DNA from: a virus
Lineage: Duplodnaviria; Caudoviricetes
IMG/VR virus record: IMGVR_UViG_3300006872_000002
Location: 1 to 49,552 of that record
Strand: one strand, 5' to 3'
Length of the DNA stretch: 49,552 nt
Shown: positions 30,717 through 49,552 of the stretch, in pieces
Layout of the letters: every line of letters begins with the position of its first letter
How positions within the stretch are numbered: the stretch's first letter is position 1
The notes under the pieces: model-generated
The model's database searches: none
What the model saw: the letters and a program-made list of their open reading frames with translations, nothing else
Told to the model about the DNA's origin: nothing
Translations under genes and position numbers: made by a program

Positions 30717-30956
30717 TTATTTGAGAACTTTAACATGATAAATTTGAACTTTACTGTTTCCATCAAATTGTTCATTTTTAGAGATAATTTGAATATCGGC
30801 AAGGTAACAAAACCTATCAAATTCAGTTGAAAATGTGGGGTCATCTGCAAATATCACAAGTTCATCATCTTTTTGTAGGGTGTTCAAAGCCAATCTGGTT
30901 TTCACAATTGGTATTGGACATTTCAATCCTCTACAATTTACAGATATAGTTTTCAT
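30717..30956 (-). CDS. tusA: TusA/SirA sulfur carrier
   Basis: CRGLKCPIPIVKT..AL..L...D.L.I.ADDP (CPxP motif). Confidence 0.85.
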   Translation of the reverse strand: MKTISVNCRGLKCPIPIVKTRLALNTLQKDDELVIFADDPTFSTEFDRFCYLADIQIISKNEQFDGNSKVQIYHVKVLK

Positions 30957-31023
30957 AGTATTGCTAGAGCCGCCCACTGTCAGCGGCTCCGTAATCCCTG
31001 ATTACACATGGTAATAGGGGCAA

Positions 31024-31182
31024 TTATCCCTGTAACAATGTTTTACCACCATCTAACTGTCTTGATTGCTCCTGTGTTGCCTGGACCCTTGCTCTACGTA
31101 AGGCACACAAATCAATATTCAACTGTGCAATCTGTCTTTCCACTTCGTGTATTCTTTGGTCTATGTCCCTAACATCCATCAT
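31024..31182 (-). CDS. Small coiled-coil hypothetical protein
   Basis: Start reassigned to MMDVRD with GGAGG RBS; KTLLQG ending. Confidence 0.55.
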   Translation of the reverse strand: MMDVRDIDQRIHEVERQIAQLNIDLCALRRARVQATQEQSRQLDGGKTLLQG

Positions 31183-31342
31183 TGGGGTCATCCTCCCACA
31201 TGTCAAATCCATTGCATTCGTTTTTATTATCATTCCTTTTATGCTTAGTCTTCTTATGGCTATTTTTACGAAATTCCTCTTCTTTGTTACCATGACCAAA
31301 CTTTGTCTTACGAGTGACAACTAACTCACTACTACCATGCAT
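31169..31342 (-). CDS. Small hypothetical protein (57 aa)
   Basis: Read by hand: MHGSSELVVTRKTKFGHG...; GGAGG RBS. Confidence 0.5.
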   Translation of the reverse strand: MHGSSELVVTRKTKFGHGNKEEEFRKNSHKKTKHKRNDNKNECNGFDMWEDDPNDGC

Positions 31343-31353
31343 GATGGTACCTC

Positions 31354-32001
31354 CTAGAATTTAGTAAATAATTTATCTGCCAGTCTAAGTTTTACTGCTT
31401 CCTCCGCTGTCAGCCAGGCATCGGATGGGCGTAACAACTTTTTTTCTACAACACGCTTACTAATCCGGCAGTATGTAGTAAGCAAACTATTAATTCTGTT
31501 TCTACAGAATTCCAATTCTTTCATCCCTGCTTGAAGTTCATGCTCCTTACCCTCCATATCAGAATAAAATTGATGCATCATGATTCCAGCATGTCGAGCA
31601 AGATATCTATGACCTCGTTGACCACATGCAAGTATTAGTGCAGCAGCGGACATAACATTACCAATACCCACAGTTGCAACTGGATACTTTGATGCATGCA
31701 TCACATCAATGAGGGCAAATGCATTATATAAATCACCACCACCAGAATTAATATACAGAGTTAATTGTCTTTTCTTTTCTTTTGGATCTACTTCCTTGAC
31801 ATTTTCTGCAATAATCCATTGAATTGCTTTTCCAATTGTTTCGTAATTTATTTCACCTTGTAAGTAATGTGAGTGGTTATTGATTAGTGCTGCTTGAATT
31901 GGGTCACAGTCATCACCACCCTCACTAATCATGAAAATTGGTTGGTTGTTGTGTTGAATGTCAACATCTTCTTTTTTATCTGGTTGGTTTGTGTTTGCCA
32001 C
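31354..32001 (-). CDS. clpP: ClpP-like protease subunit
   Basis: LYINSGGG, G.VMSAA (Ser), IMMHQ (His), D.WLTAEEAV (Asp). Confidence 0.9.
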   Translation of the reverse strand: MANTNQPDKKEDVDIQHNNQPIFMISEGGDDCDPIQAALINNHSHYLQGEINYETIGKAIQWIIAENVKEVDPKEKKRQLTLYINSGGGDLYNAFALIDVMHASKYPVATVGIGNVMSAAALILACGQRGHRYLARHAGIMMHQFYSDMEGKEHELQAGMKELEFCRNRINSLLTTYCRISKRVVEKKLLRPSDAWLTAEEAVKLRLADKLFTKF

Positions 32002-35965: not shown

Positions 35966-37150
35966 TCACCCCTTTACACAAAGGACTTGACGAAGTTCTG
36001 CAACCACAGTGACCAAATCATTTTGGTCCATCATCACTTGATCGATTGGTTTGTATGCAGCGGGAATTTCATCAACCACACCTGCATCTTTACGACACAC
36101 AATACCTTCTGTCTGCTTAACCACATCCTCTGCAGTGTAAAGTGACTTTGCTTTACCTCGTGACAATTGGCGACCTGCGCCATGTGAACAGGAACAAAAA
36201 GAATCAGGATTCCCTAATCCTTGCACAATGTATGAACGGGTACCCATTGAACCAGGAATAATACCCAAATCATCCATGCGAGCCCTCACTGCACCCTTTC
36301 TAGTAACAATGACATTCTCTCCAAAATGATTCTCACGTTCTGCGTAGTTATGGTGACAATTGACCATTGTGATTGGTTCAAGTCGGTCATCACCAACGAA
36401 ACTTGATATTTCGTCAAGAACTAATGACATCATAATTTCACGATTTTTCATAGCATAAGACTGTGCCCACTGCAAATCCGACCAATAAGCATTGAATAAT
36501 TCATGTCCCTCTGGCAAATATGCCAAATCTGGGTTTTCTAATTTAATCATGAATGTCTTCATTAATTCTTTTGCTCGATCAATGTAATAATTTCCAATAA
36601 CATTTCCAATTCCACGAGAACCAGAATGCAACACTACCCACACATTATCTTGTGTGTCCAGACACACTTCAATAAAATGGTTCCCCCCACCCAATGTTCC
36701 CATCTGTGACAACATCTTATCCTGTCGATCTTTTTTCACTTCCACAGGAAGAGAGTTGAACCCCCTAAGACCCTTCCAGAAAAGAGTATGGTTCACTGGG
36801 GTTTTATGTTGATCCTGCCCAACCGGAACGGCTTTAGAAATATAAGAAAATAAATCATCCAAATTATCTGGTAAATGTTGACCTTTGAGAGGAAGCATCG
36901 CTGCCATCATCCCACATCCAATATCCACACCCACTGCAGCAGGGACCAATGCTCCCTTCGTTGCAACAACAGATCCAACAGTAGCACCCTTACCATAGTG
37001 GACATCAGGCATCGCAGCAACATGTTTAAAGACAAATGGTAGTCCTGCAGTCTGTCTCAATTGGACTTCAGACTGAGAATCCACATTATTGGTCCAGATC
37101 TTAACTGGAACCGTCTGTTTTTCTCCTGTTAACACCTTTGCAACTGGCAT
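35966..37150 (-). CDS. rtcB: RtcB RNA ligase
   Basis: MPDVH.G.GAT.G, GVDIGCGM, GTLGGGNHF.E, LHSGSRG, CHHNY, PGSMG, SCSHGAGR, DE.P.AYK. Confidence 0.96.
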   Translation of the reverse strand: MPVAKVLTGEKQTVPVKIWTNNVDSQSEVQLRQTAGLPFVFKHVAAMPDVHYGKGATVGSVVATKGALVPAAVGVDIGCGMMAAMLPLKGQHLPDNLDDLFSYISKAVPVGQDQHKTPVNHTLFWKGLRGFNSLPVEVKKDRQDKMLSQMGTLGGGNHFIEVCLDTQDNVWVVLHSGSRGIGNVIGNYYIDRAKELMKTFMIKLENPDLAYLPEGHELFNAYWSDLQWAQSYAMKNREIMMSLVLDEISSFVGDDRLEPITMVNCHHNYAERENHFGENVIVTRKGAVRARMDDLGIIPGSMGTRSYIVQGLGNPDSFCSCSHGAGRQLSRGKAKSLYTAEDVVKQTEGIVCRKDAGVVDEIPAAYKPIDQVMMDQNDLVTVVAELRQVLCVKG

Positions 37151-39232: not shown

Positions 39233-40171
39233 TTATTCCCTTTCTTTATGGTGTAGGTCCATGATCGTATACAATAGATTATCACACTTCTCATCATTTA
39301 CTGTATCAGGAAGTAAAGATTTTTCTGACAATTCTTCCAACTCTACCATCAAATTCTCAAGCATTGGTGAGACATTACTAAAATGTAATTCCCCATTCTT
39401 AATTTGTTTTAGAAAGTCAACTTGTTTTAGTGGATATGTAAAATCTCCATGTGTCAAAATATCTTTCACCTGAAAGGCAGCACGGAATGCATGAGAGATT
39501 GCCTTCCAATCAATACCCTGATTGGTTTCTGCTTGACGTGCTCGTTCACCAAATTCTTTAACAAAATTCTGCAACATACCAACATAATTATCAGTAGTTG
39601 CAGAAAGAGTCATTTTCTTTCCACACACTTCATAAAACTTACTATCGTCCGATGGTCCACAATGTTCTCCAACTGGAAGAAGATGCAACACATCATGGAT
39701 CTTCTTCTTTGGGTGTTGACGAAGAGATTCTAAAACATTTTTTGCATCCGCTAACCGGCTACCTTTTATACCATACTTTGCGGCTTGTGTTCTCGCATAT
39801 CCAACAAATGATGATAATTTTCTGGTATAGAACAAATGTCTGCTCTTATGAATAATCACCCAATCCAAATTGAATGTGATCCAAAACTCACTTGGTGCAT
39901 GGAGCATATCGAGTGCAACAGTTTCACCCTTCTTTGCAAGTTCAAAGAAATAGGGAAGAGAATATAATTCTCTATCCACATCATTAGATGAATTTTTTAC
40001 ACTACTATTTGTCTTAGTATTATTTGAAATGCTCTTTGGAGTTCTGCAGAAGTAGAGTTCTCTTTTTGATGGGATAAACACCCCCTTATAATCCTTGTCG
40101 GATGAGGGGGTGTTGGTTCCATATAGATGGGAACCAAAAATCATCTCAACTAATGTTGTTCTGTTGCTCAT
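39233..40171 (-). CDS. Pol-beta superfamily nucleotidyltransferase (RlaP / T4 NrdC.11-like)
   Basis: FGSHLYGT.TP.SD.DYKGVF, F.GYA..QA.KY, DWKA.SHA.R, L..IK.G. Confidence 0.85.
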   Translation of the reverse strand: MSNRTTLVEMIFGSHLYGTNTPSSDKDYKGVFIPSKRELYFCRTPKSISNNTKTNSSVKNSSNDVDRELYSLPYFFELAKKGETVALDMLHAPSEFWITFNLDWVIIHKSRHLFYTRKLSSFVGYARTQAAKYGIKGSRLADAKNVLESLRQHPKKKIHDVLHLLPVGEHCGPSDDSKFYEVCGKKMTLSATTDNYVGMLQNFVKEFGERARQAETNQGIDWKAISHAFRAAFQVKDILTHGDFTYPLKQVDFLKQIKNGELHFSNVSPMLENLMVELEELSEKSLLPDTVNDEKCDNLLYTIMDLHHKERE

Positions 40172-40178
40172 GATATGA

Positions 40179-40207
40179 AGTATATCAAACCAATCACAAA
40201 TTGTCAA
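40179..40207 (-). promoter_or_regulatory. Sigma70-type promoter (leaderless transcript likely)
   Basis: TTGACA-17-TATACT; ATG 7 nt after the -10. Confidence 0.7.
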
Positions 40208-40473: not shown

Positions 40474-41256
40474 CTATCTATTGATACCACCAGTAACAAA
40501 TAATTCTTGATAATCAATATCATATGACTTATCTGCTGCTGCACTGTTTATCAAAGAATATGCCGGTCTAATACCTGCATTCATAGAATTGGTATTTGAA
40601 GTTGATGCAACCAATACATCGTTAATATAATACTTGGTAGTTTGTGTTTCCGAAGATTTGAACACTACTTTAAACGTTGTAAATGAAGTTGTGATAGCAA
40701 CTCCAGTATCAAATCTGGTTTGAGCGGATGCCCCCCTATTAACAGCGAACCAATTGGTATCAGCGTCCAACTTTTCAAAATATCTTCCATTTGACGGTGG
40801 ATTAACAGTACCTCCACCAGTCAAAAACCCAAATCTCAACTGTGTGTTTGTGTCTACATTGTTTAACCTGAGAATTGTTGAGAATTCTAAATCATACGTG
40901 GAATCAAAAAGTTCTCCACCAACCCCCATAAACAAAGAAGTTAATGTGCTTATTGTCGCAGAAGTAGAACTCCTTGTTATACCAATTCTTCCGGCAACAA
41001 ACGTAGTTCCTATATTTCCACCACTTCTACTCCACCAAATTGGTGTTGCACCATTTTGCATACAATCATCTTGATACCTGAATATATTCTTATTATATAC
41101 AAAAGCAAGTGCTGACCTACCACCAGATGTTACCCCATCAGAAACCTTCAATACTGGGGTTGATGGATCAAAAAATATTTCACCATTGTTTCCAATATAG
41201 GTATTTGAATCGGTATTTGCGCCTTTATCTGGTAATATCTTTATCGTTTTTGGCAT
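40474..41256 (-). CDS. Late structural protein with Mtd-N-like attachment domain and beta-rich (lectin-like) C-terminus
   Basis: YIG..GEIFFD.....LKVSDGVT.GG N-terminus; TATAAATA upstream. Confidence 0.7.
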   Translation of the reverse strand: MPKTIKILPDKGANTDSNTYIGNNGEIFFDPSTPVLKVSDGVTSGGRSALAFVYNKNIFRYQDDCMQNGATPIWWSRSGGNIGTTFVAGRIGITRSSTSATISTLTSLFMGVGGELFDSTYDLEFSTILRLNNVDTNTQLRFGFLTGGGTVNPPSNGRYFEKLDADTNWFAVNRGASAQTRFDTGVAITTSFTTFKVVFKSSETQTTKYYINDVLVASTSNTNSMNAGIRPAYSLINSAAADKSYDIDYQELFVTGGINR

Positions 41257-41277
41257 AATTCCCCCATAGATAGGGAG

Positions 41278-41285
41278 TATTTATA
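41278..41285 (-). promoter_or_regulatory. T4-type late promoter TATAAATA
   Basis: Exact match 21 nt upstream of the ATG at 41256. Confidence 0.75.
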
Positions 41286-41291
41286 ATAGTA

Positions 41292-41366
41292 TGGTGGACC
41301 CTGTAGGTGCTGCCCCTACCACCTCTACAGTGTCAATGTAGTGATCTGCTGCTGATCTAAGGGTCC
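41292..41366 (-). tRNA. tRNA-Val(GAC)
   Basis: Cloverleaf, CCA, loop TT-GAC-AC; T-loop GGCAGCA. Confidence 0.85.
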
Positions 41367-41370
41367 AGAG

Positions 41371-41448
41371 TGGTCCGCCTGACAGGACTCGAACCTGCAT
41401 GATTCTGGTGTCGAAAACCAGATGACTTCCAATTGTCATCACAGGCGG
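41371..41448 (-). tRNA. tRNA-Arg(TCG)
   Basis: Cloverleaf, CCA, loop TT-TCG-AC. Confidence 0.9.
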
Positions 41449-41798
41449 CTAATAATCTCCATCCATTCCTGGTCAAGAATACAGTTCTTTGGTGCATTCT
41501 TAAACATAGGTGCTATTTGTTCGTTCGTATATCCTGCAAGACCACACCCAATACGTGTCACAATAAATCTCATCTCTGGATGTGATTCTGCAAACAATAA
41601 AAACACATCAACAAGTACTTTGATATTATTAAGAGGAAGAGGTTTTAAATTATGATCTTTGGTTGCGATGGCATATGCATTTCCTGTTAAACCTAATCCC
41701 TGGCCATATTCTGCTCCATAAAATTTCCGTGCATGAAGTGCAGCACCCTTCCCATGTCTACCAGCAAGATTTGACCCAAACACAAAAATTTCTCTCAT
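41439..41798 (-). CDS. Conserved phage protein (IFVFGSN.AG.HG.GAA; macrodomain-like)
   Basis: MREIFVFGSNLAGRHGKGAA, AYAI.TK, F.VT.IGCGLAG. Confidence 0.8.
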   Translation of the reverse strand: MREIFVFGSNLAGRHGKGAALHARKFYGAEYGQGLGLTGNAYAIATKDHNLKPLPLNNIKVLVDVFLLFAESHPEMRFIVTRIGCGLAGYTNEQIAPMFKNAPKNCILDQEWMEIISRL

Positions 41799-41811
41799 GA
41801 TATAAATTCTA

Positions 41812-41887
41812 TGGTGCCGCTGACAGGACTCGAACCTGCATCATCTTCTTTAGGAAAGAAGTTCCCGTCCAATTGGGCGACAGCGGC
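41812..41887 (-). tRNA. tRNA-Arg(CCT)
   Basis: Cloverleaf, CCA, loop TT-CCT-AA. Confidence 0.9.
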
Positions 41888-42042
41888 AATTTATTTGTTA
41901 TGAATAATATTTTGAATTACCTTTTTATGTTGACCCATTCTCTTAGAAAGAGAAATGAGATAAGATAATTTTTTAGAATTTCCACTTAATTGGTTTTTTA
42001 CTATTTTTAATAGTTCTTGTAAGTATAAAGTATTCATAGTTT

Positions 42043-42118
42043 TGGTGCCCCCGGCAGGACTCGAACCTGCATGATCCTGATTAGAAGTCAGGTGCCTTTC
42101 CAGTTAGACTACGGAGGC
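42043..42118 (-). tRNA. tRNA-Arg(TCT)
   Basis: Cloverleaf, CCA, loop CT-TCT-AA. Confidence 0.92.
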
Positions 42119-42122
42119 AATA

Positions 42123-42211
42123 TGGCGGAAGATGGAGTACTCGAAACTCATCCCCCGAAAGGAACCATCTGTTTTCGAGACAGTGCCAGCGTCCTATCTG
42201 GTTCATCTTCC
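42123..42211 (-). tRNA. tRNA-Ser(CGA)
   Basis: Long variable arm, G73, loop CT-CGA-AA. Confidence 0.9.
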
Positions 42212-42215
42212 AAAT

Positions 42216-42520
42216 TGGTGGAGGTGCAGGGTATTGCAGCCCTGGTCCAAAGAAACTAATAAAGTGGAATCTCCATGCTACTCAATCAATGACACGACAA
42301 TCGAAGGATTGAGACAACGATTGTTTGTGAAACGAAACTTCAACAACCTGAATATCACGCATCCCCACTTACAGGCTTCAGTGGACCAGCGAGCAGCACT
42401 TACGCTGCTAATGCAAAATTAGATTCGACAGTTTCAATTGCTTGTGAGATTAACGTGGACACCAGCACCCACGGCATGTCCCATCTTCTTTCGTATTCCT
42501 TGTCGATACTATTCACCCCC
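42216..42520 (-). ncRNA. ssrA: tmRNA, tag (A)VESNFALAA*
   Basis: 5' GGGGGTG...TCGAC; 3' CACCTCC-A-CCA with G3:U70; internal AACT-GTC GAA TCT AAT TTT GCA TTA GCA GCG TAA. Confidence 0.92.
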
Positions 42521-42526
42521 ATATTA

Positions 42527-42614
42527 TGGCGGAAGGTACAGGATTTGAACCTGTGTGTGTTTTACCACGCATCGCTTTCCAAGCGAGCCGAATAGGCCAC
42601 TCTCGCAACCTTCC
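42527..42614 (-). tRNA. tRNA-Ser(GGA)
   Basis: Long variable arm, loop TT-GGA-AA. Confidence 0.9.
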
Positions 42615-42621
42615 AAAAATC

Positions 42622-42694
42622 TAGGAGCGGATAATCCAGGATCTCTGAAATTATCCGCGTCCCGTATGCCCGCTTTCTCACATGGAGAACGGGT
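42622..42694 (-). ncRNA. Unknown two-hairpin structured spacer RNA
   Basis: cccg-ttctc/gagaa-cggg and gcggataat/attatccgc stems between two Ser tRNAs. Confidence 0.45.
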
Positions 42695-42701
42695 CTTAAA
42701 C

Positions 42702-42791
42702 TGGCGGAGAGCAGAGGACTCGAACCCCATACCCTTTCAGGTACAATCCGCTTTCAAGACGGTTGTGTTAACCCGTAACACTTTACTTTCC
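42702..42791 (-). tRNA. tRNA-Ser(TGA)
   Basis: Long variable arm, loop CT-TGA-AA. Confidence 0.9.
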
Positions 42792-42797
42792 AAAACA

Positions 42798-42872
42798 TGG
42801 TGCTCCTACAGGGTGTCGATCCCTGTCTTCCAGATTGAGAATCTGGCGACCTAGCCGGTAGTCGATAGGAGC
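42798..42872 (-). tRNA. tRNA-Glu(CTC)
   Basis: Loop TT-CTC-AA; T-loop ATCGACA. Confidence 0.88.
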
Positions 42873-42876
42873 ATTA

Positions 42877-42951
42877 TGGTGGACCACCACGGTACTGCCC
42901 CGTATTCCCCAGGTTAAGAGCCTGGTGCATCACTATTAATGCTTGTAGTCC
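42877..42951 (-). tRNA. tRNA-Lys(CTT)
   Basis: Loop CT-CTT-AA; T-loop GGCAGTA. Confidence 0.85.
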
Positions 42952-42956
42952 GTCTA

Positions 42957-43033
42957 TGGTGTCCCCGACTGGATTTCAACCAGTGTCTCCACCTTCGCAG
43001 GGTGGTATGATATGCAGGCTTCACTACGGGGAC
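42957..43033 (-). tRNA. tRNA-Arg(GCG)
   Basis: Loop CT-GCG-AA. Confidence 0.88.
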
Positions 43034-43038
43034 ATATA

Positions 43039-43113
43039 TGGTAGACGGTAGTGGTACTGCCCCACTCTTGTCTCGCGTGTAAGGCGAGTGCATCCCTTCT
43101 CTGCCAACCGTCC
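43039..43113 (-). tRNA. tRNA-Val(TAC)
   Basis: Loop CT-TAC-AC; T-loop GGCAGTA. Confidence 0.85.
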
Positions 43114-43120
43114 GTTAAAA

Positions 43121-43197
43121 TGGAGCCCCTTGTTGGACTTGCACCAACCGTTTCCACTTTACCAAAGTGGCGTGTCAACTACCTCTACTTAAGGGGC
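43121..43197 (-). tRNA. tRNA-Thr(GGT)
   Basis: Loop TT-GGT-AA; T-loop TGCAAGT. Confidence 0.85.
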
Positions 43198-43205
43198 GCA
43201 AAAAT

Positions 43206-43515
43206 CTGAGTCCAACTATACCCGGCATTCTGTATTCTTCTGTCATTTCTCTAGGAGTATCATTACTGATACCCTCAAGCCACCTACCCGTTCGTTTTGT
43301 GCGAGCAGCACACGAACCTATTTGGTGTTGCACCAGATGGAGATTGCTCGTTTCACCCACCACCAACACCGTAGTGCGTCAAATCATTCGGTGGTGACTC
43401 GTCTCTGTGGCTCTAATCATCAGGTCACCCTGTGTGGTTGTTAACCACCATCTTGCTCTTGGTGTGCCGAAGTTCCTCTAGGTCTGTTACCCTAGCGACA
43501 GAATGTTGAACTCAG
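43206..43515 (-). ncRNA. rnpB: RNase P RNA (compact, about 310 nt)
   Basis: P1 ctgagttcaac/gttggactcag; GAGGAACTTCGGCA pairing with ACAGAATGCCGGGTA (P4); AGAGCCACAGAGA and GGTGAAACG (L11/12); P18 with GTAA tetraloop; CCTAGAGAAATGA before P2. Confidence 0.88.
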
Positions 43516-43689
43516 TAGTCCTTTCTTTACTTTAATACTACCTCGTAACAAATGATGTTTTCCACATATATGACAAAGAGAATCTTTATATTTACGCAAT
43601 TTGCATTTTATACAATACGACCAAAATTCTTCTCCGTTCTTTCCAAATCCAAATGAATTATGATTACATAACATTTGTTTTTTAGTCAT
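43492..43689 (-). CDS. Small Cys/His-rich hypothetical protein
   Basis: 65 aa, CxxC pairs; fills the gap between tRNA-Leu and rnpB but overlaps the rnpB 5' end. Confidence 0.4.
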   Translation of the reverse strand: MTKKQMLCNHNSFGFGKNGEEFWSYCIKCKLRKYKDSLCHICGKHHLLRGSIKVKKGLLSSTFCR

Positions 43690-43696
43690 AATAATA

Positions 43697-43773
43697 TGGT
43701 ACCTAGGGTGGGAGTCGAACCCACAGAAACCTGTTTTTGAGACAGGTATGTTTGCCAGTTACATCACCTAGGT
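43697..43773 (-). tRNA. tRNA-Leu(CAA), short variable loop
   Basis: Loop CT-CAA-AA; 77 nt. Confidence 0.88.
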
Positions 43774-43938
43774 ATTAATCTGTGAAAGAACTTCCAACTT
43801 TGCTTCAATAACTCTGATGTCATTTGCCGCGTCACAAACACCATGCCAATCATGCTCATCCATCTTTGTTCTCAAATATGATATCATAACTGATTTTGAA
43901 TGAATAAGAAACTCAATTTGTTTTTCTTTACCATTCAC
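43768..43938 (-). CDS. Small hypothetical protein (YL..K....DWHGV.DAA.D.R)
   Basis: GTG start with GGAGG RBS; 56 aa. Confidence 0.65.
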   Translation of the reverse strand: MNGKEKQIEFLIHSKSVMISYLRTKMDEHDWHGVCDAANDIRVIEAKLEVLSQINT

Positions 43939-43955
43939 AATATACCTCCATAATA

Positions 43956-44033
43956 TGGTGCCGTGGGTGGGAGTCGAACCCACAAACGAATCGTTTTAAG
44001 CGATCCAGGTATGCCAGTTCCCTTCACCACGGC
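43956..44033 (-). tRNA. tRNA-Leu(TAA), short variable loop
   Basis: Loop CT-TAA-AA; 78 nt. Confidence 0.88.
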
Positions 44034-44034
44034 G

Positions 44035-44080
44035 TTATCGAGTTTAACACATATTTACCACTTATCGAGTTTAACACATA
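44035..44080. repeat. 19-bp direct repeat in a tRNA spacer
   Basis: ttatcgagtttaacacata at 44035-44053 and 44062-44080. Confidence 0.9.
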
Positions 44081-44084
44081 AACA

Positions 44085-44159
44085 TGGAGCCGCTTGACGG
44101 AATCGAACCGTCTTATCTGCTTTACGAAAGCAGCACATCACCGTGTATGTTTAAGCGGC
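44085..44159 (-). tRNA. tRNA-Thr(CGT)
   Basis: Loop TT-CGT-AA. Confidence 0.88.
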
Positions 44160-44176
44160 AATGTCTATTAAACTGT

Positions 44177-44251
44177 TGGTGCCGCCGGTAGGAGTCGAAC
44201 CCACCTGAATCCGGTTAAAAGCCGGGAGCATAGCCGCTCTGCCACGACGGC
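44177..44251 (-). tRNA. tRNA-Lys(TTT)
   Basis: Loop CT-TTT-AA. Confidence 0.9.
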
Positions 44252-44258
44252 GTTACAT

Positions 44259-44336
44259 TGGTCTGGATGGTGGGATTTGAACCCACAATTTCTCGTCTCC
44301 GAAACGAGAGGAGTAGCCTGGTTCTCCTACATCCAG
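44259..44336 (-). tRNA. tRNA-Pro(CGG)
   Basis: Loop TT-CGG-AG; C1-G72, A73. Confidence 0.9.
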
Positions 44337-44349
44337 TTATGTTTCTATT

Positions 44350-44426
44350 GATGGTGGCTAGCCATCCTGGGAGATTGCACTATGCCATCTCACTTCGCTA
44401 CAATGGTTAAATTGTGTGAGACCCAG
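44350..44426 (-). ncRNA. Unknown structured spacer RNA
   Basis: Nested ctggg/cccag, tctcac/gtgaga and acaat/attgt stems plus a gatgg/ccatc hairpin. Confidence 0.45.
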
Positions 44427-44441
44427 TATATATTTAAACTT

Positions 44442-44517
44442 TGGAGCGGGTTATGGGAATTGCACCCATACGAACAGGGTGGAAACCTGTCATGCTGCTG
44501 TTGAACATCAAACCCGC
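44442..44517 (-). tRNA. tRNA-Gly(TCC)
   Basis: Loop TT-TCC-AC; U73; T-loop TGCAATT. Confidence 0.88.
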
Positions 44518-44528
44518 ATATTCAATTT

Positions 44529-44603
44529 TGGAGCGGATGGTGGGAGTCGAACCCACGTGATCTTCCTTGGCAAGGAAGCACATAACCGTTCTGTCACATC
44601 CGC
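44529..44603 (-). tRNA. tRNA-Gly(GCC)
   Basis: Loop TT-GCC-AA; U73. Confidence 0.9.
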
Positions 44604-44754
44604 ATTCTTTTTTACGAGGGATTTCACTTTTCTTATTGTTCCGGCTCTTTTTTCGCATAGGATGTAACTCCCATCTCTTTTCCTCATCGGTATCGATGAG
44701 TATTTCGAGCAAACATTACAGTTTGGCTAACCTCGAACCGTCTATCCTCATAAA

Positions 44755-44829
44755 TGGCGCGGAATGGAGGACTTGAACCCCCTCGGCTACCTCTTCAGGG
44801 TAGTGTTCTGCCAGTTAAACTAATTCCGC
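44755..44829 (-). tRNA. tRNA-Phe(GAA)
   Basis: Loop CT-GAA-GA; atypical G37 and G73. Confidence 0.85.
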
Positions 44830-44833
44830 ATAT

Positions 44834-44908
44834 TGGCTCCAGGGGTAGGGATCGAACCTACGATAGCCTGATTAACAGTCAGGTGCCGTACCGCTTGGCT
44901 ACCCTGGA
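44834..44908 (-). tRNA. tRNA-Asn(GTT)
   Basis: Loop CT-GTT-AA; U1-A72, G73. Confidence 0.92.
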
Positions 44909-45111
44909 ATAATATCTTTACATCGTCTCATTACTTTGCATGTTGGACAATATAGCATTGTCCCATATTGTTTTCTATATGGACTATTTGCTGCGTACAC
45001 ATTACCATATACCTTATACCTTAAAATCATTTATACAATATGTGCATCGAACAGTTTTTCTTTTTGGAAACCGTCTTTCACCAAACCATCCCACATATCA
45101 CCAAAATTTTT

Positions 45112-45311
45112 AGGAGAGACACCTTTCATCATAGCGATATAACCGGCATGCTATGACTCTCTGAACTGCTTGTACCATTTAGGAGTATTGCTCTAGCCTT
45201 ATTGAGCACTCCAATCAGGATTATTAACATGTTTGATGGTATCAGATACCATCTCACCTGATCTCAGTTTCGTGTCCCCTCAGAGTAGGTCCAGATTTCT
45301 CTGTTCTCCTT
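45112..45311 (-). ncRNA. Unknown ~200-nt multi-stem ncRNA with its own promoter
   Basis: Ends pair (aggagaaca/tgtctctcct); internal atcagg/cctgat, gatggtat/ataccatc, ggagt/actcc and catagc/gctatg stems. Confidence 0.6.
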
Positions 45312-45318
45312 AATTTTA

Positions 45319-45347
45319 AGAATACCACAATCTAAACTAAAAGTCAA
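45319..45347 (-). promoter_or_regulatory. Sigma70-type promoter within the RNA island
   Basis: TTGACT-17-TATTCT with TGTG. Confidence 0.7.
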
Positions 45348-45348
45348 C

Positions 45349-45424
45349 TGGTAGAGGTATCTAGATTTGAACTAGAACTAAAAGATTCAGAATCTTCTGT
45401 GCTGCCGGGTTACACCATACCTCC
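45349..45424 (-). tRNA. tRNA-Gln(CTG)
   Basis: Loop TT-CTG-AA. Confidence 0.88.
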
Positions 45425-45426
45425 AT

Positions 45427-45957
45427 TTAATTACCAGGTAAATCAATTCCTTCATTAAACCAACGATAGATACTTCTCACTTCTTCAAATGCAATAGGTT
45501 TATACTCTGTCTGCTCAACACAAACACAAATATACCATGGATCCTGTAACTGATTTGCATGTGTGTGTCCATGCACATTTGCTTTAAACCGTCCCTTACT
45601 CTCTGGATGCACAGGAATATGTGACAACAACATCTGATCCATCACATGATACCCACGAACATCACGAAAATACTTTAGGTAATCAGTGATCTTGAAAATA
45701 TCATGATTCCCTTTAATGAGAACCTTGTCACCATTCAATCTATCTAGGATAGCGAGTGCTTTTCTTGCTATGACTACATCTCCCAGGTGATACACTTTGT
45801 CATGGGGTTTAACGATCCTATTCCATTCCTGGACCATGTATTCATCCATTTCCTCTGGATTATCCCATGGTCTCAACTTCGTTCCGTCATTCCGAAGGAA
45901 CTTACAAACCCCTGCATGACTAAAATGTGTATCTGCTGTCAGAAATATGTTACTCAT
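45427..45957 (-). CDS. Calcineurin-like phosphoesterase
   Basis: ADTHF.H, VYHLGD, KGNHD, LSHIP, NVHGH.H; start at MSNIF. Confidence 0.9.
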   Translation of the reverse strand: MSNIFLTADTHFSHAGVCKFLRNDGTKLRPWDNPEEMDEYMVQEWNRIVKPHDKVYHLGDVVIARKALAILDRLNGDKVLIKGNHDIFKITDYLKYFRDVRGYHVMDQMLLSHIPVHPESKGRFKANVHGHTHANQLQDPWYICVCVEQTEYKPIAFEEVRSIYRWFNEGIDLPGN

Positions 45958-46096
45958 CAGATTTACTTTTTGCTGCATTCCATGCCGCAACACATGACCT
46001 AATATTCAGAGTCCTACGATCTTCTAAAGGAAGAGAGAACCACCATTTTTTGAACTCTTCTGAAGTTTTTAGATTTATAATATTCATATTACTCAT
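45950..46096 (-). CDS. Small hypothetical protein (F.KWW...AAWNAA)
   Basis: 48 aa, overlaps the phosphoesterase start. Confidence 0.5.
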   Translation of the reverse strand: MSNMNIINLKTSEEFKKWWFSLPLEDRRTLNIRSCVAAWNAAKSKSDE

Positions 46097-46102
46097 AATG
46101 TA

Positions 46103-46176
46103 TGGAAGGGGGTAGTGGTACTGCCCCACTGTCTGTTGGTTCAAAGCCAACGGTCCTACTATTGAACGAACCCCCT
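46103..46176 (-). tRNA. tRNA-Gln(TTG)
   Basis: Loop CT-TTG-AA; T-loop GGCAGTA. Confidence 0.85.
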
Positions 46177-46191
46177 ATAACCTTTCAACCA

Positions 46192-46279
46192 TGGCGGAAG
46201 TGGAAGGATTTGAACCTTCGTGGGTGTTACCCCGCATCCCTTAGCAGGGGAGCCTATTAAGCCTCTCTAGCACACTTCC
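46192..46279 (-). tRNA. tRNA-Ser(GCT)
   Basis: Long variable arm; loop CT-GCT-AA. Confidence 0.9.
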
Positions 46280-46293
46280 AAAAACATTTACAT

Positions 46294-46393
46294 TGGTGCA
46301 GCCCAGATCCGTTAGGATCTCACCCTAGAACAACCGGAAGTTAATTACGCTCCCTTTATTCTAGGTACAGAGTGGAGCGACCACAAGGACTGC
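46294..46393 (-). ncRNA. CCA-ended tRNA-like RNA with internal pseudoknot
   Basis: Acceptor GCAGTCC/GGGCTGC-A-CCA, stacked agatcc/ggatct hairpin, interleaved cgctcc/ggagcg and cctagaa/ttctagg stems. Confidence 0.65.
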
Positions 46394-46399
46394 ATACGA

Positions 46400-46474
46400 T
46401 GGAGTCGCCGATAGGATTCGAACCTACATACAACCGCTTTGCAGGCGGCGACCTAGCCTTTCAGTCACGGCGAC
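46400..46474 (-). tRNA. tRNA-Cys(GCA)
   Basis: Loop CT-GCA-AA; U73. Confidence 0.9.
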
Positions 46475-46481
46475 ATTAAAT

Positions 46482-46557
46482 TGGCGCACCTGACGGGTAA
46501 CGATCCCGCTTCATTCTTGATTGACAATCAAGCGCCTATCCTACTGGCTCCAGGTGC
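46482..46557 (-). tRNA. tRNA-Asp(GTC)
   Basis: Loop TT-GTC-AA; G73; T-loop ATCGTTA. Confidence 0.88.
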
Positions 46558-46565
46558 AATATTCT

Positions 46566-46631
46566 GATCGGTATCTTTCTACTTGTTACGACCCCCAAAG
46601 GGGGATGGGAATTGCACCCATGTCTCCGACC
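46566..46631 (-). ncRNA. Circularly permuted tRNA-like RNA (YrlA-like domain), copy 2
   Basis: ggtcgg - agac - T arm atggg/TGCAATT/cccat - closed acceptor ccccc/ttt/ggggg - D-like loop - ccgatc. Confidence 0.65.
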
Positions 46632-46643
46632 TTGCTCTGTAAC

Positions 46644-46727
46644 TGGTGGATCATCAAGGAGTCGAACCTTGTGAGAATTAACGACTGCTTTACAGGCAGC
46701 CCCGCCTCCGTAACGGTTTAATGATCC
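46644..46727 (-). tRNA. tRNA-Tyr(GTA)
   Basis: Loop CT-GTA-AA; variable arm. Confidence 0.88.
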
Positions 46728-46735
46728 GTATTTTT

Positions 46736-46764
46736 ATTATAACAAACTATACACTAAAAATCAA
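46736..46764 (-). promoter_or_regulatory. Sigma70-type promoter within the tRNA island
   Basis: TTGATT-17-TATAAT with TG. Confidence 0.7.
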
Positions 46765-46766
46765 GG

Positions 46767-46855
46767 TGGTCCACCCGTAAGGAATCGAACCTTATCGAGA
46801 CACCAATCTAGTGTGAGGGGTTTATAAGACCCCCTTGCCTCCAAGGCGCGGGTGG
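46767..46855 (-). tRNA. Non-canonical tRNA with TAT (Ile) anticodon, long variable arm, shrunken D arm
   Basis: CCACCCG/CGGGTGG-A-CCA; ggggt-CT TAT AA-acccc; V-arm acact/ggtgt; D arm gcct-tgg-aggc. Confidence 0.8.
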
Positions 46856-46861
46856 AAATTT

Positions 46862-46939
46862 TGGTGTCGGTGGGGAGAGTCGAACTCCCAAACACTTGGT
46901 TCTAAGCCAAGTAGGTATGCCAGTTCCCTTCACACCGAC
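46862..46939 (-). tRNA. tRNA-Leu(TAG), short variable loop
   Basis: Loop CT-TAG-AA; 78 nt. Confidence 0.88.
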
Positions 46940-47331
46940 GATTTCTTTCTTCTCCAAGTTGGTGTCTGTGAATGGCAGTTTGGACATAGAAATCTTAAAT
47001 TGTCCCTACTACTATTCTTTTTATTACCATCTTTATGATCCAACTCCAAAACAAGTCTGCCACCCAGCCACTCACTTAATCCACAAAGACACTTGCCACC
47101 CTGTTCCTCTAATACTTTTCTTCTTTTCTCTGGTATATTATACTCGTTCCAAGAAAGAGTGTTATATCGTTTTTCCCGTATTATTTTCTTTTTTTCTACA
47201 GCAAGGCACCAATCATCTTTACCAAAAAGTTTTCTTCTTGAATCATATCCTTTTTTGAAACCAGCCTGGTGAACTCTTCTACCCTTAAGGGAATCTGATA
47301 TCTTTTTGTTTATTGCCTTTTGATCCCTCAT
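46930..47331 (-). CDS. HNH homing endonuclease
   Basis: C.CG..EW....L.LELDHKDGN..N....NLRFLCPNCHSQT. Confidence 0.9.
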   Translation of the reverse strand: MRDQKAINKKISDSLKGRRVHQAGFKKGYDSRRKLFGKDDWCLAVEKKKIIREKRYNTLSWNEYNIPEKRRKVLEEQGGKCLCGLSEWLGGRLVLELDHKDGNKKNSSRDNLRFLCPNCHSQTPTWRRKKSSV

Positions 47332-47344
47332 AATAAATCCTAAA

Positions 47345-47418
47345 TGGTGGCGGTAGAAGGAATTGCACCTTCTAGATAGGACTTATGAAATCCTTCTGCT
47401 TCGCTTGTGCTTACCGCC
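47345..47418 (-). tRNA. tRNA with CAT anticodon (Met elongator or Ile2)
   Basis: Loop TT-CAT-AA; weak D arm; T-loop TGCAATT. Confidence 0.75.
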
Positions 47419-47422
47419 GTCA

Positions 47423-47499
47423 TGGTAGCGGGTCAAGGAGTTGCACCTTGAACTTGAGTTTATGAGACTCAACGGGTCACTGTCCCCTTCCACGCCGCA
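47423..47499 (-). tRNA. tRNA-Met(CAT), initiator-like acceptor
   Basis: 1:72 mismatch plus GCGG/CCGC; loop CT-CAT-AA; lacks the three G-C pairs in the anticodon stem. Confidence 0.7.
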
Positions 47500-47512
47500 A
47501 ATTTTTAAAACC

Positions 47513-47623
47513 GGCACTGTGCTACCCGTTACACTAAACTCTTCATCAGTCTTACAGTCTGCAGCCCGGAATCTTAATTCTATAACTGATTTCTGAGTCG
47601 CGGAATCGAACCGCTCTAGTGCC
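47513..47623 (-). ncRNA. Circularly permuted tRNA-like RNA (YrlA-like domain), copy 1
   Basis: ggcact - ag - T arm gcgg/TTCGATT/ccgc - gactc [extended atcagt/actgat hairpin] gagtt - TA - D arm gtgt/aacgggta/gcac - agtgcc. Confidence 0.78.
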
Positions 47624-47630
47624 TCATTCC

Positions 47631-47708
47631 TGGTGTCGTTGGGGAGAGTCGAACTCCCAAGCAACTGGCTCTCGACCAGTTAGGTATACCAATTCCCTTC
47701 ACAACGAC
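47631..47708 (-). tRNA. tRNA-Leu(GAG), short variable loop, C33
   Basis: Loop TC-GAG-AG; near-paralogue of Leu(TAG). Confidence 0.8.
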
Positions 47709-47716
47709 GATATTAA

Positions 47717-47810
47717 TTGTGTAGGTGCCTAAGTTCACGTCTAGACTCTGTTACTTGGGGCATATGACCTCCCCACCTACAGCAGCGACTATGTTCTACA
47801 ACCTACACAA
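47717..47810 (-). ncRNA. Unknown ~95-nt RNA closed by a 10-bp terminal stem
   Basis: ttgtgtaggt ... acctacacaa. Confidence 0.5.
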
Positions 47811-47817
47811 ATTTATA

Positions 47818-47890
47818 TGGTAAGGTCCTATCTTGGATGACAAACAGTTTCAAGTCTGTTTGCCTGAGCATCGCACTCAGGATTACTTAC
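47818..47890 (-). ncRNA. T-arm-less tRNA-like RNA with CCA and a Ser(TGA)-like anticodon loop
   Basis: gtaag/cttac-ca end; cctgagt/gctcagg hairpin; caaacag-aCTTGAAAa-ctgtttg hairpin; no T arm. Confidence 0.55.
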
Positions 47891-47895
47891 ACATT

Positions 47896-47973
47896 TGGTC
47901 TAGGGGGTGGGATTTGAACCCACGGTTTCTCGCTTCCAAAGCGAGAGGATCAACCAGACTTTCCTACCCCTAG
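47896..47973 (-). tRNA. tRNA-Pro(TGG)
   Basis: Loop TT-TGG-AA. Confidence 0.9.
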
Positions 47974-47979
47974 ATATTT

Positions 47980-48053
47980 TGGTGGACCAGTCGCCGAATC
48001 GAACGGTGTTGACCTTACGCAGAAAGCCCATGGTGTCCACACCATACCAGCCC
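47980..48053 (-). tRNA. Aberrant Ala-identity tRNA-like RNA (8-bp acceptor, G3:U70, 6-nt anticodon loop)
   Basis: GGGCTGGT/ACTGGTCC-A-CCA; long D hairpin atggtgt/acaccat; TTCGATT T-loop. Confidence 0.55.
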
Positions 48054-48062
48054 ACAATAATT

Positions 48063-48137
48063 TGGCGCTCCTTGTGGGTATCGATCCCACTCCGCCGGCT
48101 TGAAAGGCCGGAATCCTAGCCAGTAGACGAAAGGAGC
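48063..48137 (-). tRNA. tRNA-Glu(TTC)
   Basis: Loop CT-TTC-AA; T-loop ATCGATA. Confidence 0.9.
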
Positions 48138-48143
48138 ATAATT

Positions 48144-48218
48144 TGGTGGAGGCTGGCGGTTCTGCCCCGCCGACTTCTCGGTGCAAGTGAGATGGTTTCC
48201 TAATTAGCCTAAGCCCCC
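48144..48218 (-). tRNA. tRNA-Ala(TGC)
   Basis: G3:U70; loop CT-TGC-AC; T-loop GGCAGAA. Confidence 0.85.
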
Positions 48219-48225
48219 ATATTTT

Positions 48226-48512
48226 TAGCCCACATTTTAATCATCCCTAACCGGACAAACACCAAAAAGTGCATGCGGAGTTGCTTACCGGCTTGGGAGT
48301 GTTGCGAGTAGCACTAGCACTTTAACGGCTACGGTACATCTCGCGTCCCAAACCTACATTTTGTTACCCTTTTACCCCACCGTGTGTAGTGAGAACCCCT
48401 TGATATTATCACAAGGTAAGGATAACTCTTTTAAGGTCGCCCCGCCGGAGACATCTTAATGTTGGTCCTGTCATAAGCAGCCGAGCAACATTCTCAATAT
48501 CCCATTGGGACG
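48226..48512 (-). ncRNA. Unknown ~290-nt ornate structured RNA
   Basis: cgtcccaa/ttgggacg closing stem; aatgttg/caacatt; gttatcctt/aagggtaac; gcgag/ctcgc; tccc..gccgg/ccggt..ggga; no ORF of 60 aa or more. Confidence 0.6.
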
Positions 48513-48513
48513 T

Positions 48514-48587
48514 TGGGGTGATCGGTGGGTAACGCTCCCACTTTTCCTGGGCCACAACCAGGCGCATTTCTTTTATGCTACGACCAC
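48514..48587 (-). tRNA. tRNA-His(GTG), no encoded G-1
   Basis: Loop TT-GTG-GC; C73; T-loop AGCGTTA. Confidence 0.85.
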
Positions 48588-48589
48588 AA

Positions 48590-48665
48590 TGGAGCCGCTG
48601 ACTGGACTTGCACCAGCCTAATCCTCCTTACAAGAGAGGTGATCAACTACCTGACCCACAGCGGC
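48590..48665 (-). tRNA. tRNA-Thr(TGT)
   Basis: Loop CT-TGT-AA; T-loop TGCAAGT. Confidence 0.87.
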
Positions 48666-48680
48666 ATTCTTATAATATGT

Positions 48681-48742
48681 ATAGGAGATAGGATTTATGG
48701 GATCAGTTGTATGTCCTGAAAGCCAACCTACACAACTCCTAT
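48681..48742 (-). ncRNA. Small structured element downstream of the HNH gene
   Basis: ataggag/ctcctat terminal stem; shares TTGTGTAGGTTG with the 47717-47810 element. Confidence 0.4.
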
Positions 48743-48783
48743 GCATCTGGAGTATGCTTGGTGTTTACATCACTCCCAACATA

Positions 48784-49308
48784 TTACTTTAACTCACAAT
48801 TCCAATACAAGTAATCTGCCCACGTTTCTGGCATCTTACGCAACCCAATTGTCACGGTCACAACTTGTGACCAGATCGGTTGCTTTGGTTTCTTCAACAA
48901 CTTCATTCCTGCTTGCTCTGGTGTTCTTCCTTCTTTCTTTGAATTACAAGGAACACAAGCAGTTACGATATTTTCCCATGTTTTCACACCACCCTGTGAA
49001 ACTGGTTTTACATGGTCAAAAGTCAATTCTTCTGAATCAAACTTCTGTGCACAATACTGACATGTAAACCCATCTCTTGTAAAAATATTCAAACGAGTAA
49101 ACTTCACAGGTGCTTTTCTACGAAAACGAACCGGAACAAGCATTCTCAAAACTGAAGGAATCTTCATGCTGAAAGAGATTGAATGAATCTCTTCTTCATG
49201 TTCCTCCAAGACCTCAACCTTACCAGTCCAAAGCAACGTAATTGCTCGTTGCCAGTTAACAACTTGTAAGGGTTCATATGAACTGTTTAACAGCAATGTC
49301 ATATGCAT
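48784..49308 (-). CDS. McrA-like HNH endonuclease
   Basis: LLLN.SYEPL..V.WQRAI.L, F.R.NIF.RD..TCQYC, LT.DHV.P.S.GG..TWENIV.AC..CN..K. Confidence 0.92.
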   Translation of the reverse strand: MHMTLLLNSSYEPLQVVNWQRAITLLWTGKVEVLEEHEEEIHSISFSMKIPSVLRMLVPVRFRRKAPVKFTRLNIFTRDGFTCQYCAQKFDSEELTFDHVKPVSQGGVKTWENIVTACVPCNSKKEGRTPEQAGMKLLKKPKQPIWSQVVTVTIGLRKMPETWADYLYWNCELK

Positions 49309-49332
49309 GATGCTTCTCCCAACGTTTCTATC

Positions 49333-49361
49333 ACTATAACAAATCCAAATTCATTTGTCAA
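49333..49361 (-). promoter_or_regulatory. Sigma70-type promoter driving HNH and downstream RNAs
   Basis: TTGACA-17-TATAGT with TG. Confidence 0.75.
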
Positions 49362-49370
49362 CTACAAACT

Positions 49371-49444
49371 TGGCACCGGATGCAGGAGTCGAACCTGCGC
49401 CAACGGTTTTGGAGACCGTCATGCTTCCGTAACACCTATCCGGT
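49371..49444 (-). tRNA. tRNA-Trp(CCA)
   Basis: Loop CT-CCA-AA; G73. Confidence 0.9.
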
Positions 49445-49451
49445 ATATATA

Positions 49452-49525
49452 TGGTACGCCTCCACGGAATTGCACCGCGATCATCCGCTAATCAGGCGGA
49501 GGTACTTCTATTGTACGAGAGGCGT
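49452..49525 (-). tRNA. tRNA-Ile(GAT)
   Basis: Loop CT-GAT-TA (atypical U37); T-loop TGCAATT. Confidence 0.83.
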
Positions 49526-49552
49526 ATATAACAAAAAAGCCGAAGGGGTCCC

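Follow-up and report, generated by a model that had tools for sequence, protein, structure and literature searches.

The window analysed here is the entire 49.5-kb virus record IMGVR_UViG_3300006872_000002 (49,552 nt, estimated completeness 30%). Its minus strand carries, at the contig end, an island of RNA genes (positions 41292-49525) in which tRNAs for all 20 amino acids occur together with a transfer-messenger RNA (tmRNA), a bacterial RNase P RNA and a number of candidate folded RNAs located in spacers. With a probability of roughly 0.55, the island represents the tRNA operon of a T4-like phage, which would provide an RNA kit replacing host RNAs and working with host proteins, and from which folded cassettes would additionally be released. 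Gene content, conservation, missing protein partners, neighbouring RNA-repair genes and turnover of cassettes are direct observations.

The window has the gene content of a T4-like myovirus (baseplate, tail tube, gp32, gp59, late coactivator), with 36.7% G+C outside the array. The upstream end of the island is truncated by the contig border. Known RNAs account for 3,722 of its 8,234 bases and orphan RNA cores for 1,288; directly adjacent RNA genes are separated by a median gap of 6 nt. Sequence search revealed no cultured-phage record covering the island. The RNase P gene and spacers S2 and S6 had zero cultured-phage matches, and the matches listed with two wider queries consisted of tRNA genes or short chance pieces. 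A metagenome scan retrieved L092, a 99.9% twin of the window, and no intermediate relative was present among the best 80 of 122 metagenome stretches. The clade has five members: the window and four independent relatives, namely the complete G001 and G006 (168-kb genomes each) and the fragments L306 and L307. Array backbone and gene order are common to all five, and spacer content varies.

Genes of recognised RNA families are as follows.

41292..49525, minus strand: tRNA array, 40 CCA-ended genes with 38 anticodons, all 20 amino acids
43203..43514, minus strand: RNase P RNA, bacterial class A, without P13/P14
42216..42520, minus strand: tmRNA, tag frame ending ALAA-stop

The RNase P RNA scores 192.2 bits against RF00010 (cut-off 100) over model positions 1-367. 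Elements P13/P14 are missing (43 model positions unmatched) and the rest of the class A model is matched. In the window, G001 and G006 alike, all eight pairs of helix P4 are formed, its bulged U is kept and the L15 GGU, partner of the tRNA CCA, is retained. The P4 sequence deviates from the class A consensus, and four of its eight pairs are altered on both sides among the three genomes. As judged from sequence comparison, the phage RNase P RNA is under structural selection. The tmRNA scores 78.6 bits (RF00023 cut-off 47) and has tRNA-Ala-like ends with CCA; its tags end in AA-stop in the window, G001 and G006. A preliminary description of this DNA, made from its letters, had named ssrA and rnpB and had postulated a replacement of the translation machinery. 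Rfam bears out both genes, and the inventory expected for such a replacement, a full decoding set with tmRNA and structurally selected RNase P RNA, is present.

A 17-base RNase P signature was found in 15 viral stretches, seven of them by chance; the other eight are RNase P-like genes inside tRNA arrays. These represent six distinct sequences, one being that of G001; four of the five others were confirmed by Rfam and the fifth (L078/L080) was assigned by motifs only. A strict RNase P pattern gave no match over viral contigs. At least 120 cellular gene stretches also carry the signature. A phylogenetic tree of 94 rows was built from 89 of 120 cellular loci and five phage copies (three phage and 31 cellular sequences being left out); its sample is biased by the signature pattern. 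The three clade copies group together (100/99) on a long branch, whose position among Burkholderiales and alphaproteobacterial sequences is only loose (92/96) and does no more than hint at a proteobacterial donor. The form without P13/P14 occurs in 75 of the 94 rows. Loss of these elements is not unusual in cellular RNase P (PMC8172020).

Two observations concern RNase P genes of other phages. L078 (about 2160-2445; same in L080) contains a much shorter RNase P-like gene with reduced 3' half, on a very long tree branch and inside an array of 21-26 tRNAs. L079, L082, L085/L088, L090 (G007-G010), L183 and L185 belong to large phages with P13/P14-less RNase P RNA; over the stretches seen, their arrays hold 13-16 tRNAs each, specific only for Ala, Asp, Glu, Gly and Val (all GNN codons) and Cys.

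The tRNA genes, previously estimated at about 39, number 40: ARAGORN called 30, Rfam added six (the one at 47426-47496 scoring below the gathering cut-off) and four were read by hand and folded, namely Val-UAC, Lys-CUU, Ser-CGA and a second, aberrant Ala-UGC (Ala2, CCA end at 47980). CCA is encoded in all 40, and the T loop deviates from TTCxA in 16. The usual identity element of tRNA-His is G-1. In all five clade members tRNA-His (48514-48588) has C73 and T rather than G at -1; no Thg1 gene was present in three records searched. Between tRNA-Thr and tRNA-Leu, an 18-nt direct repeat (44034-44084) resembles an extended -10 element, and similar words precede tRNAs of G001.

Three spacer RNAs of the island are predicted to be circularly permuted tRNA mimics.

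47820..47890, minus strand: S3a, minimal mimic of 71 nt; T arm, loop-closed 7-bp acceptor stem and D arm, ending in anticodon stem
47513..47623, minus strand: S4, mimic with 53-nt structured insert in acceptor stem
46566..46631, minus strand: S5, mimic whose closed acceptor stem is short (5 bp) and whose D arm is degenerate; without orthologue

In S4 and S5 the order of elements is anticodon stem, T arm, loop-closed acceptor stem, D arm, anticodon stem. When 371 distinct spacers were scanned with a descriptor of this layout, four matched: S4 and S5, by way of the twin L092, a single spacer of G001 and another of G006. Three shuffles gave no match, nor did the reverse strand. The homologue of S4 in G001 was detected with z 11.4 (homologue z-scores compare single-sequence alignments with shuffled controls), and seven of 25 predicted pairs are altered on both sides. 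MAFFT brought neither S5 nor the acceptor stems of S4 into register, so that this count for S4 understates the permuted fold. Pattern scan of viral contigs with S4 yielded G001 and one chance match.

Evidence for S3a comes from a 73-nt permuted mimic present in G006 and L306, which keeps all 21 pairs with nine altered on both sides. The model built from these two copies alone has S3a as its best match in the window (41.1 bits, E 2e-11); S5 reaches only 11 bits (E 0.29). With S3a included, 12 of 21 pairs are altered on both sides, a result obtained in none of 500 shuffles. tRNA-Pro directly precedes S3a, as it does the G006 copy. An interpretation of S3a as a CCA-ended degenerate tRNA was rejected once the model from the two relatives had identified it as permuted. 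Model R3 also scores pairs of adjacent tRNAs. Among 20 of its top matches examined, five, in other phage arrays, stood free of tRNA calls when ARAGORN was used with a relaxed threshold, ten overlapped neighbouring tRNAs and five coincided with weak or spurious calls only. The preliminary description also proposed a putative decoy system; lacking an anticodon loop, S3a, S4 and S5 cannot serve as decoys for anticodon nucleases.

The preliminary description further claimed that nearly all spacers above about 60 nt without a reading frame fold into defined RNAs abutting tRNA ends and that these are probably undescribed parts of one system. Thirteen candidate units were delimited, the three mimics and the following ten.

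48678..48779, minus strand: S1, multi-branched RNA directly behind the stop codon of an HNH gene, with invariant 15-nt stretch
48440..48504, minus strand: S2a, irregular hairpin; z -1.6, no homologue, unsupported
48361..48425, minus strand: S2b, three-way-junction RNA in three genomes; 6 of 24 pairs altered on both sides
48228..48354, minus strand: S2c, RNA of two domains (a long hairpin whose tip is conserved, and a branched second domain) in three genomes
47720..47808, minus strand: S3b, stem-closed RNA; weak homologue in L306 (z 3.1), 5 of 16 pairs altered on both sides
46294..46393, minus strand: S6, CCA-ended RNA, acceptor-like 7-bp stem stacked on hairpin; z -4.6 (0 of 200 shuffles), no homologue
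45111..45310, minus strand: S7, candidate of 200 nt preceded by a promoter-like site of its own; weak fold (z -1.1), no homologue
44612..44754, minus strand: S8, branched RNA candidate; z -4.7, no homologue
44350..44426, minus strand: S9, candidate with possible pseudoknot by eye; z -0.4, no homologue, unsupported
42622..42693, minus strand: S11, two-hairpin RNA; G001 homologue with z 24, 4 of 25 pairs altered on both sides

Six of the 13 have homologues with compensatory pair changes; S3b has a weak homologue, S5 was recognised by its layout only and five units have no homologue. No Rfam family, 6S RNA, SRP RNA, GOLLD, ROOL and riboswitches included, matches any of them at E <= 10 in 41200-49552, so that several conserved structures do lack an Rfam family. 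Folding is uneven: against shuffles, z-scores are about -4 for S6, S8 and S11; those of S2 and S3 lie at about -2 to -3, those of S1, S4, S5, S7, S9 and S2a at -0.4 to -1.6. A value of -2.8 was obtained for an AU-rich coding spacer as well. Ends within 15 nt of a tRNA were found on both sides of six units, on one side of five and on neither side of two. The idea of defined RNAs at tRNA ends thus stands for part of the spacers. It fails for 44909-45099, which was rejected as RNA because it is a small conserved coding region; a 43-aa cysteine-containing open reading frame (ORF) at 44899-45030, with homologue in L306, lies in what appears to be a non-coding spacer.

In both G001 and G006, S1, S2b and S2c have homologues, detected with z 10-34. 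In S1, 12 of 28 pairs are altered on both sides over the three genomes; in the first domain of S2c this holds for six of 23, a number equalled by one of 500 column shuffles. S1, S2b, S2c and S11 are four further small RNA families with predicted covarying structures. Pattern scans of viral contigs returned G001 plus six chance matches for S1, G001 and G006 plus one chance match for S2c, and the L306 record only for S3b, and models of S1 and S2c found nothing convincing beyond the clade. S1 was also considered as an obligate partner of the HNH protein encoded next to it and rejected in this role, since L306 and L307 have the HNH gene without S1, and S1 was seen at no further locus of the 59 searched.

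Arrays of relatives hold cassettes missing from the window, one of them common to G001, G006 and L306. Because the set differs in every relative, spacers behave as slots for exchangeable RNA cassettes. With a separate set in each relative and five of the 13 units lacking homologues, the proposal of a single system of spacer RNAs is not upheld. Three relatives share a conserved unnamed RNA of about 105 nt that is absent from the window (L002 7180-7285, L172 3538-3645 on the minus strand, L306 13335-13455). Tentative tRNA-derived oddities were seen by eye in L002 (10488-10622), L306 (10420-10550 and 13995-14130) and L172 (about 3295-3380 and 2895-2985, minus strand); they comprise a permuted mimic with branched acceptor insert, a CCA-ended RNA that has an anticodon-like arm but neither D arm nor T arm, and tRNA-like genes carrying large insertions.

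Genes for proteins expected to work with these RNAs were searched for as well. RnpA was found in none of six records, complete G001 and G006 among them (the window's own record being 30% complete), and SmpB in neither of two records, complete G001 being one of them. Scanning of 165 G001 proteins (157 of 205 ORFs of the G001 stretches and eight island ORFs) revealed no synthetase, CCA-adding enzyme or TROVE protein. Since these partners were not found, the island supplies RNAs and depends on host proteins, and the earlier epithet "self-contained" is not tenable.

Promoter-like sites and protein genes inside the island, together with two genes downstream, are listed below.

49333..49361, minus strand: sigma70-like promoter, 11/12, extended -10; same position in G001
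46736..46764, minus strand: sigma70-like promoter, 10/12, extended -10; same position in G001 and G006
45319..45347, minus strand: sigma70-like promoter, 9/12, extended -10, ahead of S7
48784..49308, minus strand: HNH protein, 174 amino acids, heading the array in all five clade members
46930..47331, minus strand: second HNH gene, 133 amino acids, stop codon inside tRNA-Leu(UAG)
45427..45993, minus strand: phosphoesterase, PHROG 547, typical inhabitant of phage tRNA arrays
39233..40207, minus strand: RlaP-family nucleotidyltransferase, PF10127, downstream of array
35966..37150, minus strand: RtcB RNA ligase, PF01139, 409 bits, downstream of array

The three internal sigma70 promoters proposed earlier score well and two of them recur in relatives, but the number of such sites is at chance level (22 against 16.8 +/- 4.4, not significant). 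Both HNH genes were confirmed. The first shares 80-95% identity with its counterparts in three relatives, and its role is suggested to be tied to tRNA arrays. Among the loci with homologues (L306-L384), 26 of the 27 best-ranked have at least three tRNAs nearby, and distant homologues too are often located in tRNA arrays. The second, not found at the equivalent position in G001, is likely a homing endonuclease.

A DNA ligase gene also lies downstream of the array with RlaP and RtcB, followed farther downstream by ClpP, TusA, an HD protein and a phosphoesterase. The genes for the TusA sulfur carrier and ClpP are situated at 30717-32001. G001 encodes RtcB, RlaP, an RNA ligase, PTH2, an RF-1-domain protein and NAD-salvage enzymes; its stretches L071, L072 and L075 also contain NAMPT with PRPP synthetase, an autoinducer-synthase-like or N-acyl synthase protein, ferritin and peptide deformylase. 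Directly 3' of the last tRNA and ahead of a 260-aa gene (40474-41256) lies the octamer TATAAATA (41281-41288, minus strand), the sequence of the T4 late promoter.

If the island acts as a replacement kit, the array would be transcribed from the island promoters, and its tRNAs, tmRNA and RNase P RNA would take the place of host RNAs destroyed in infection, borrowing host proteins. Phage RNase P RNA with host RnpA would form the 5' ends of tRNAs and thereby free the 3' end of the cassette upstream; a host endonuclease would cut the AU-rich linker behind CCA. The permuted mimics would fold into the tRNA L-shape; through their T/D elbow they would act as competitor or tether towards a host nuclease or tRNA-binding protein. 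The other conserved cassettes may be protein-binding accessory RNAs. Host tRNA is known to decay during T4 infection (PMC9697503), and tRNA replacement has been described as counter-defence (PMC10264068).

Several points weigh against this interpretation. In T4 infection the host's own tmRNA and RNase P RNA remain stable (PMC9697503), so that it is not obvious why a phage would need copies. S2b and S7 are the two units with neither end at a tRNA. S2a, S6, S7, S8 and S9 gave no homologue in about 3.1 Mb of relatives' loci, and S2a, S7 and S9 fold little better than chance, whereas S6 and S8 fold far better. S1 and S2c were not found in L306 and L307 over the stretches examined; since they are missing there, no cassette is shown to be essential. 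The covariation counts rest on two to three related sequences and on structures predicted from these. A search of sequencing runs listed no RNA sequencing run with the island.

The strongest competing explanation, improbable but to be taken seriously, is that spacer folds act in cis on processing or stability of the precursor, or are what is left of decayed tRNAs and mobile elements; in either case they would be degraded once the tRNAs have been released. The five units without homologue, the weak folds of S2a, S7 and S9, the HNH genes that come and go in these spacers and the position of S1 on the 3' end of an mRNA all agree with it. However, the structure of S2b and S2c is kept although their neighbours differ between the window and G001, decay would not yield a permuted layout with 12 of 21 pairs altered on both sides, and invariant loop sequences indicate a partner.

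Somewhat less probable still is an array that does no more than enhance translation for an AT-rich phage whose host has other codon habits, RNase P RNA and tmRNA adding capacity and defence playing no part. The full decoding set would suit such a function, as would the low G+C content of the phage and the loose position of its RNase P RNAs among proteobacterial ones. Arg-GCG, Arg-UCG and Ile-UAU, which are present in the window and again in G001 and G006, would read their codons without inosine or lysidine. Nevertheless, tRNAs for rare codons are included too (Pro-CCG 3%, Ser-UCG 4% and Thr-ACG 6% of their respective codon families), genes of RNA repair and ribosome rescue accompany the array, and the mimics without anticodon would be left unexplained.

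It is quite unlikely that the permuted RNAs are true Y RNAs, which would bind host Ro60 and tether or inhibit PNPase. The effector domain of YrlA (RF02553) does share with S3a, S4 and S5 the layout of T arm, closed acceptor stem and D arm, a circularly permuted tRNA-like domain ending in an anticodon stem (PMC4201824; 10.1101/312249). Phage Y RNAs beside Ro60 are known, and phage Ro60 with Y-like RNAs dampens PNPase (PMC12135203). TROVE is present in one of five further records, that of the distant phage G012, which has permuted RNAs. In the window, by contrast, the Ro60-binding motif GNCGAAN0-1G has no match on the island minus strand, the long Ro60-binding stem is missing (S3a being only 71 nt), and the best match of the YrlA model, 10.4 bits against a cut-off of 69, lies away from all three mimics. 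Neither the 60 ORFs of the window nor complete G001 and G006 contain TROVE/Ro60, and the Ro-like DUF2828 protein was found in none of five records, G001 and G006 included. The island also differs from YrlA in having three copies per array, one with a conserved acceptor insert. In layout, the predicted mimics S3a, S4 and S5 thus correspond to the tRNA-mimic half of a Y RNA and are not Y RNAs as defined.

Very improbable, finally, is the notion that some spacer RNAs are self-cleaving ribozymes releasing tRNAs: compact folds with invariant loops do adjoin tRNA ends and tRNA-linked HDV-like ribozymes reportedly occur in phages, but RNase P is the sole Rfam ribozyme at E <= 10, no hammerhead core and no match to an HDV-like descriptor (itself without positive control) were found, and the tRNAs encode their own CCA.

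The proposed RNA kit has parallels in known phages. Large tRNA arrays with tmRNA (PMC7162821, PMC10264068) and an RNA-repair kit of RtcB, RlaP, PTH2 and phosphoesterases (PMC7824862) have been described in huge, jumbo and cluster C1 phages, and the window resembles them in its dozens of tRNAs, tmRNA and repair genes. In these sources, up to 67 tRNAs are given for huge phages and 36 for phage Rizal, with replacement of cleaved host tRNAs as proposed role. The island differs in its RNase P RNA and many unnamed RNAs, and the complete relative that was scanned yielded neither SmpB nor a synthetase. The main texts of PMC7162821 and PMC7824862 contain no mention of RNase P.

Compared with cellular class A RNase P RNA, the phage copy has a full-length match, bulged-U P4 and L15 GGU in common, but is phage-borne, without RnpA, and has a P4 that is off consensus and covarying. 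RNAC and RNAD, which presumably lie in the T4 tRNA cluster, are non-tRNA RNAs as well. Their function is unexplained (PMC9697503); the island differs from them in having a dozen units instead of two, and its searched spacers match no cultured phage. Host RNase P is known to process phage RNAs as substrates (PMC11143913). A literature search that covered mostly openly accessible papers found no published description of an RNase P RNA encoded by a phage, nor of permuted mimics without Ro60.

More speculatively, and with rather less confidence than in the replacement kit itself, phage tRNA operons may serve to express an interchangeable arsenal of RNAs for counter-defence, with a phage RNase P ribozyme carrying out their maturation. 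The Ro60-free permuted mimics would perhaps be opened by RNase P and tagged with CCA by the host, becoming tRNA decoys without anticodon (as is reported of Mycobacterium smegmatis YrlA, whose acceptor stem has 7 bp), and S1, S2b, S2c and S11 would each block or recruit a host protein.

The purpose of tRNA arrays in phages, and the function of the other RNAs that lie within them, is an old question. This locus offers a phage RNase P RNA that is under structural selection, a type of gene that was not found in print, and a stand-alone tRNA-like half of a Y RNA, through which that half may be assayed without Ro60. All these RNAs are short enough for direct synthesis and assay.

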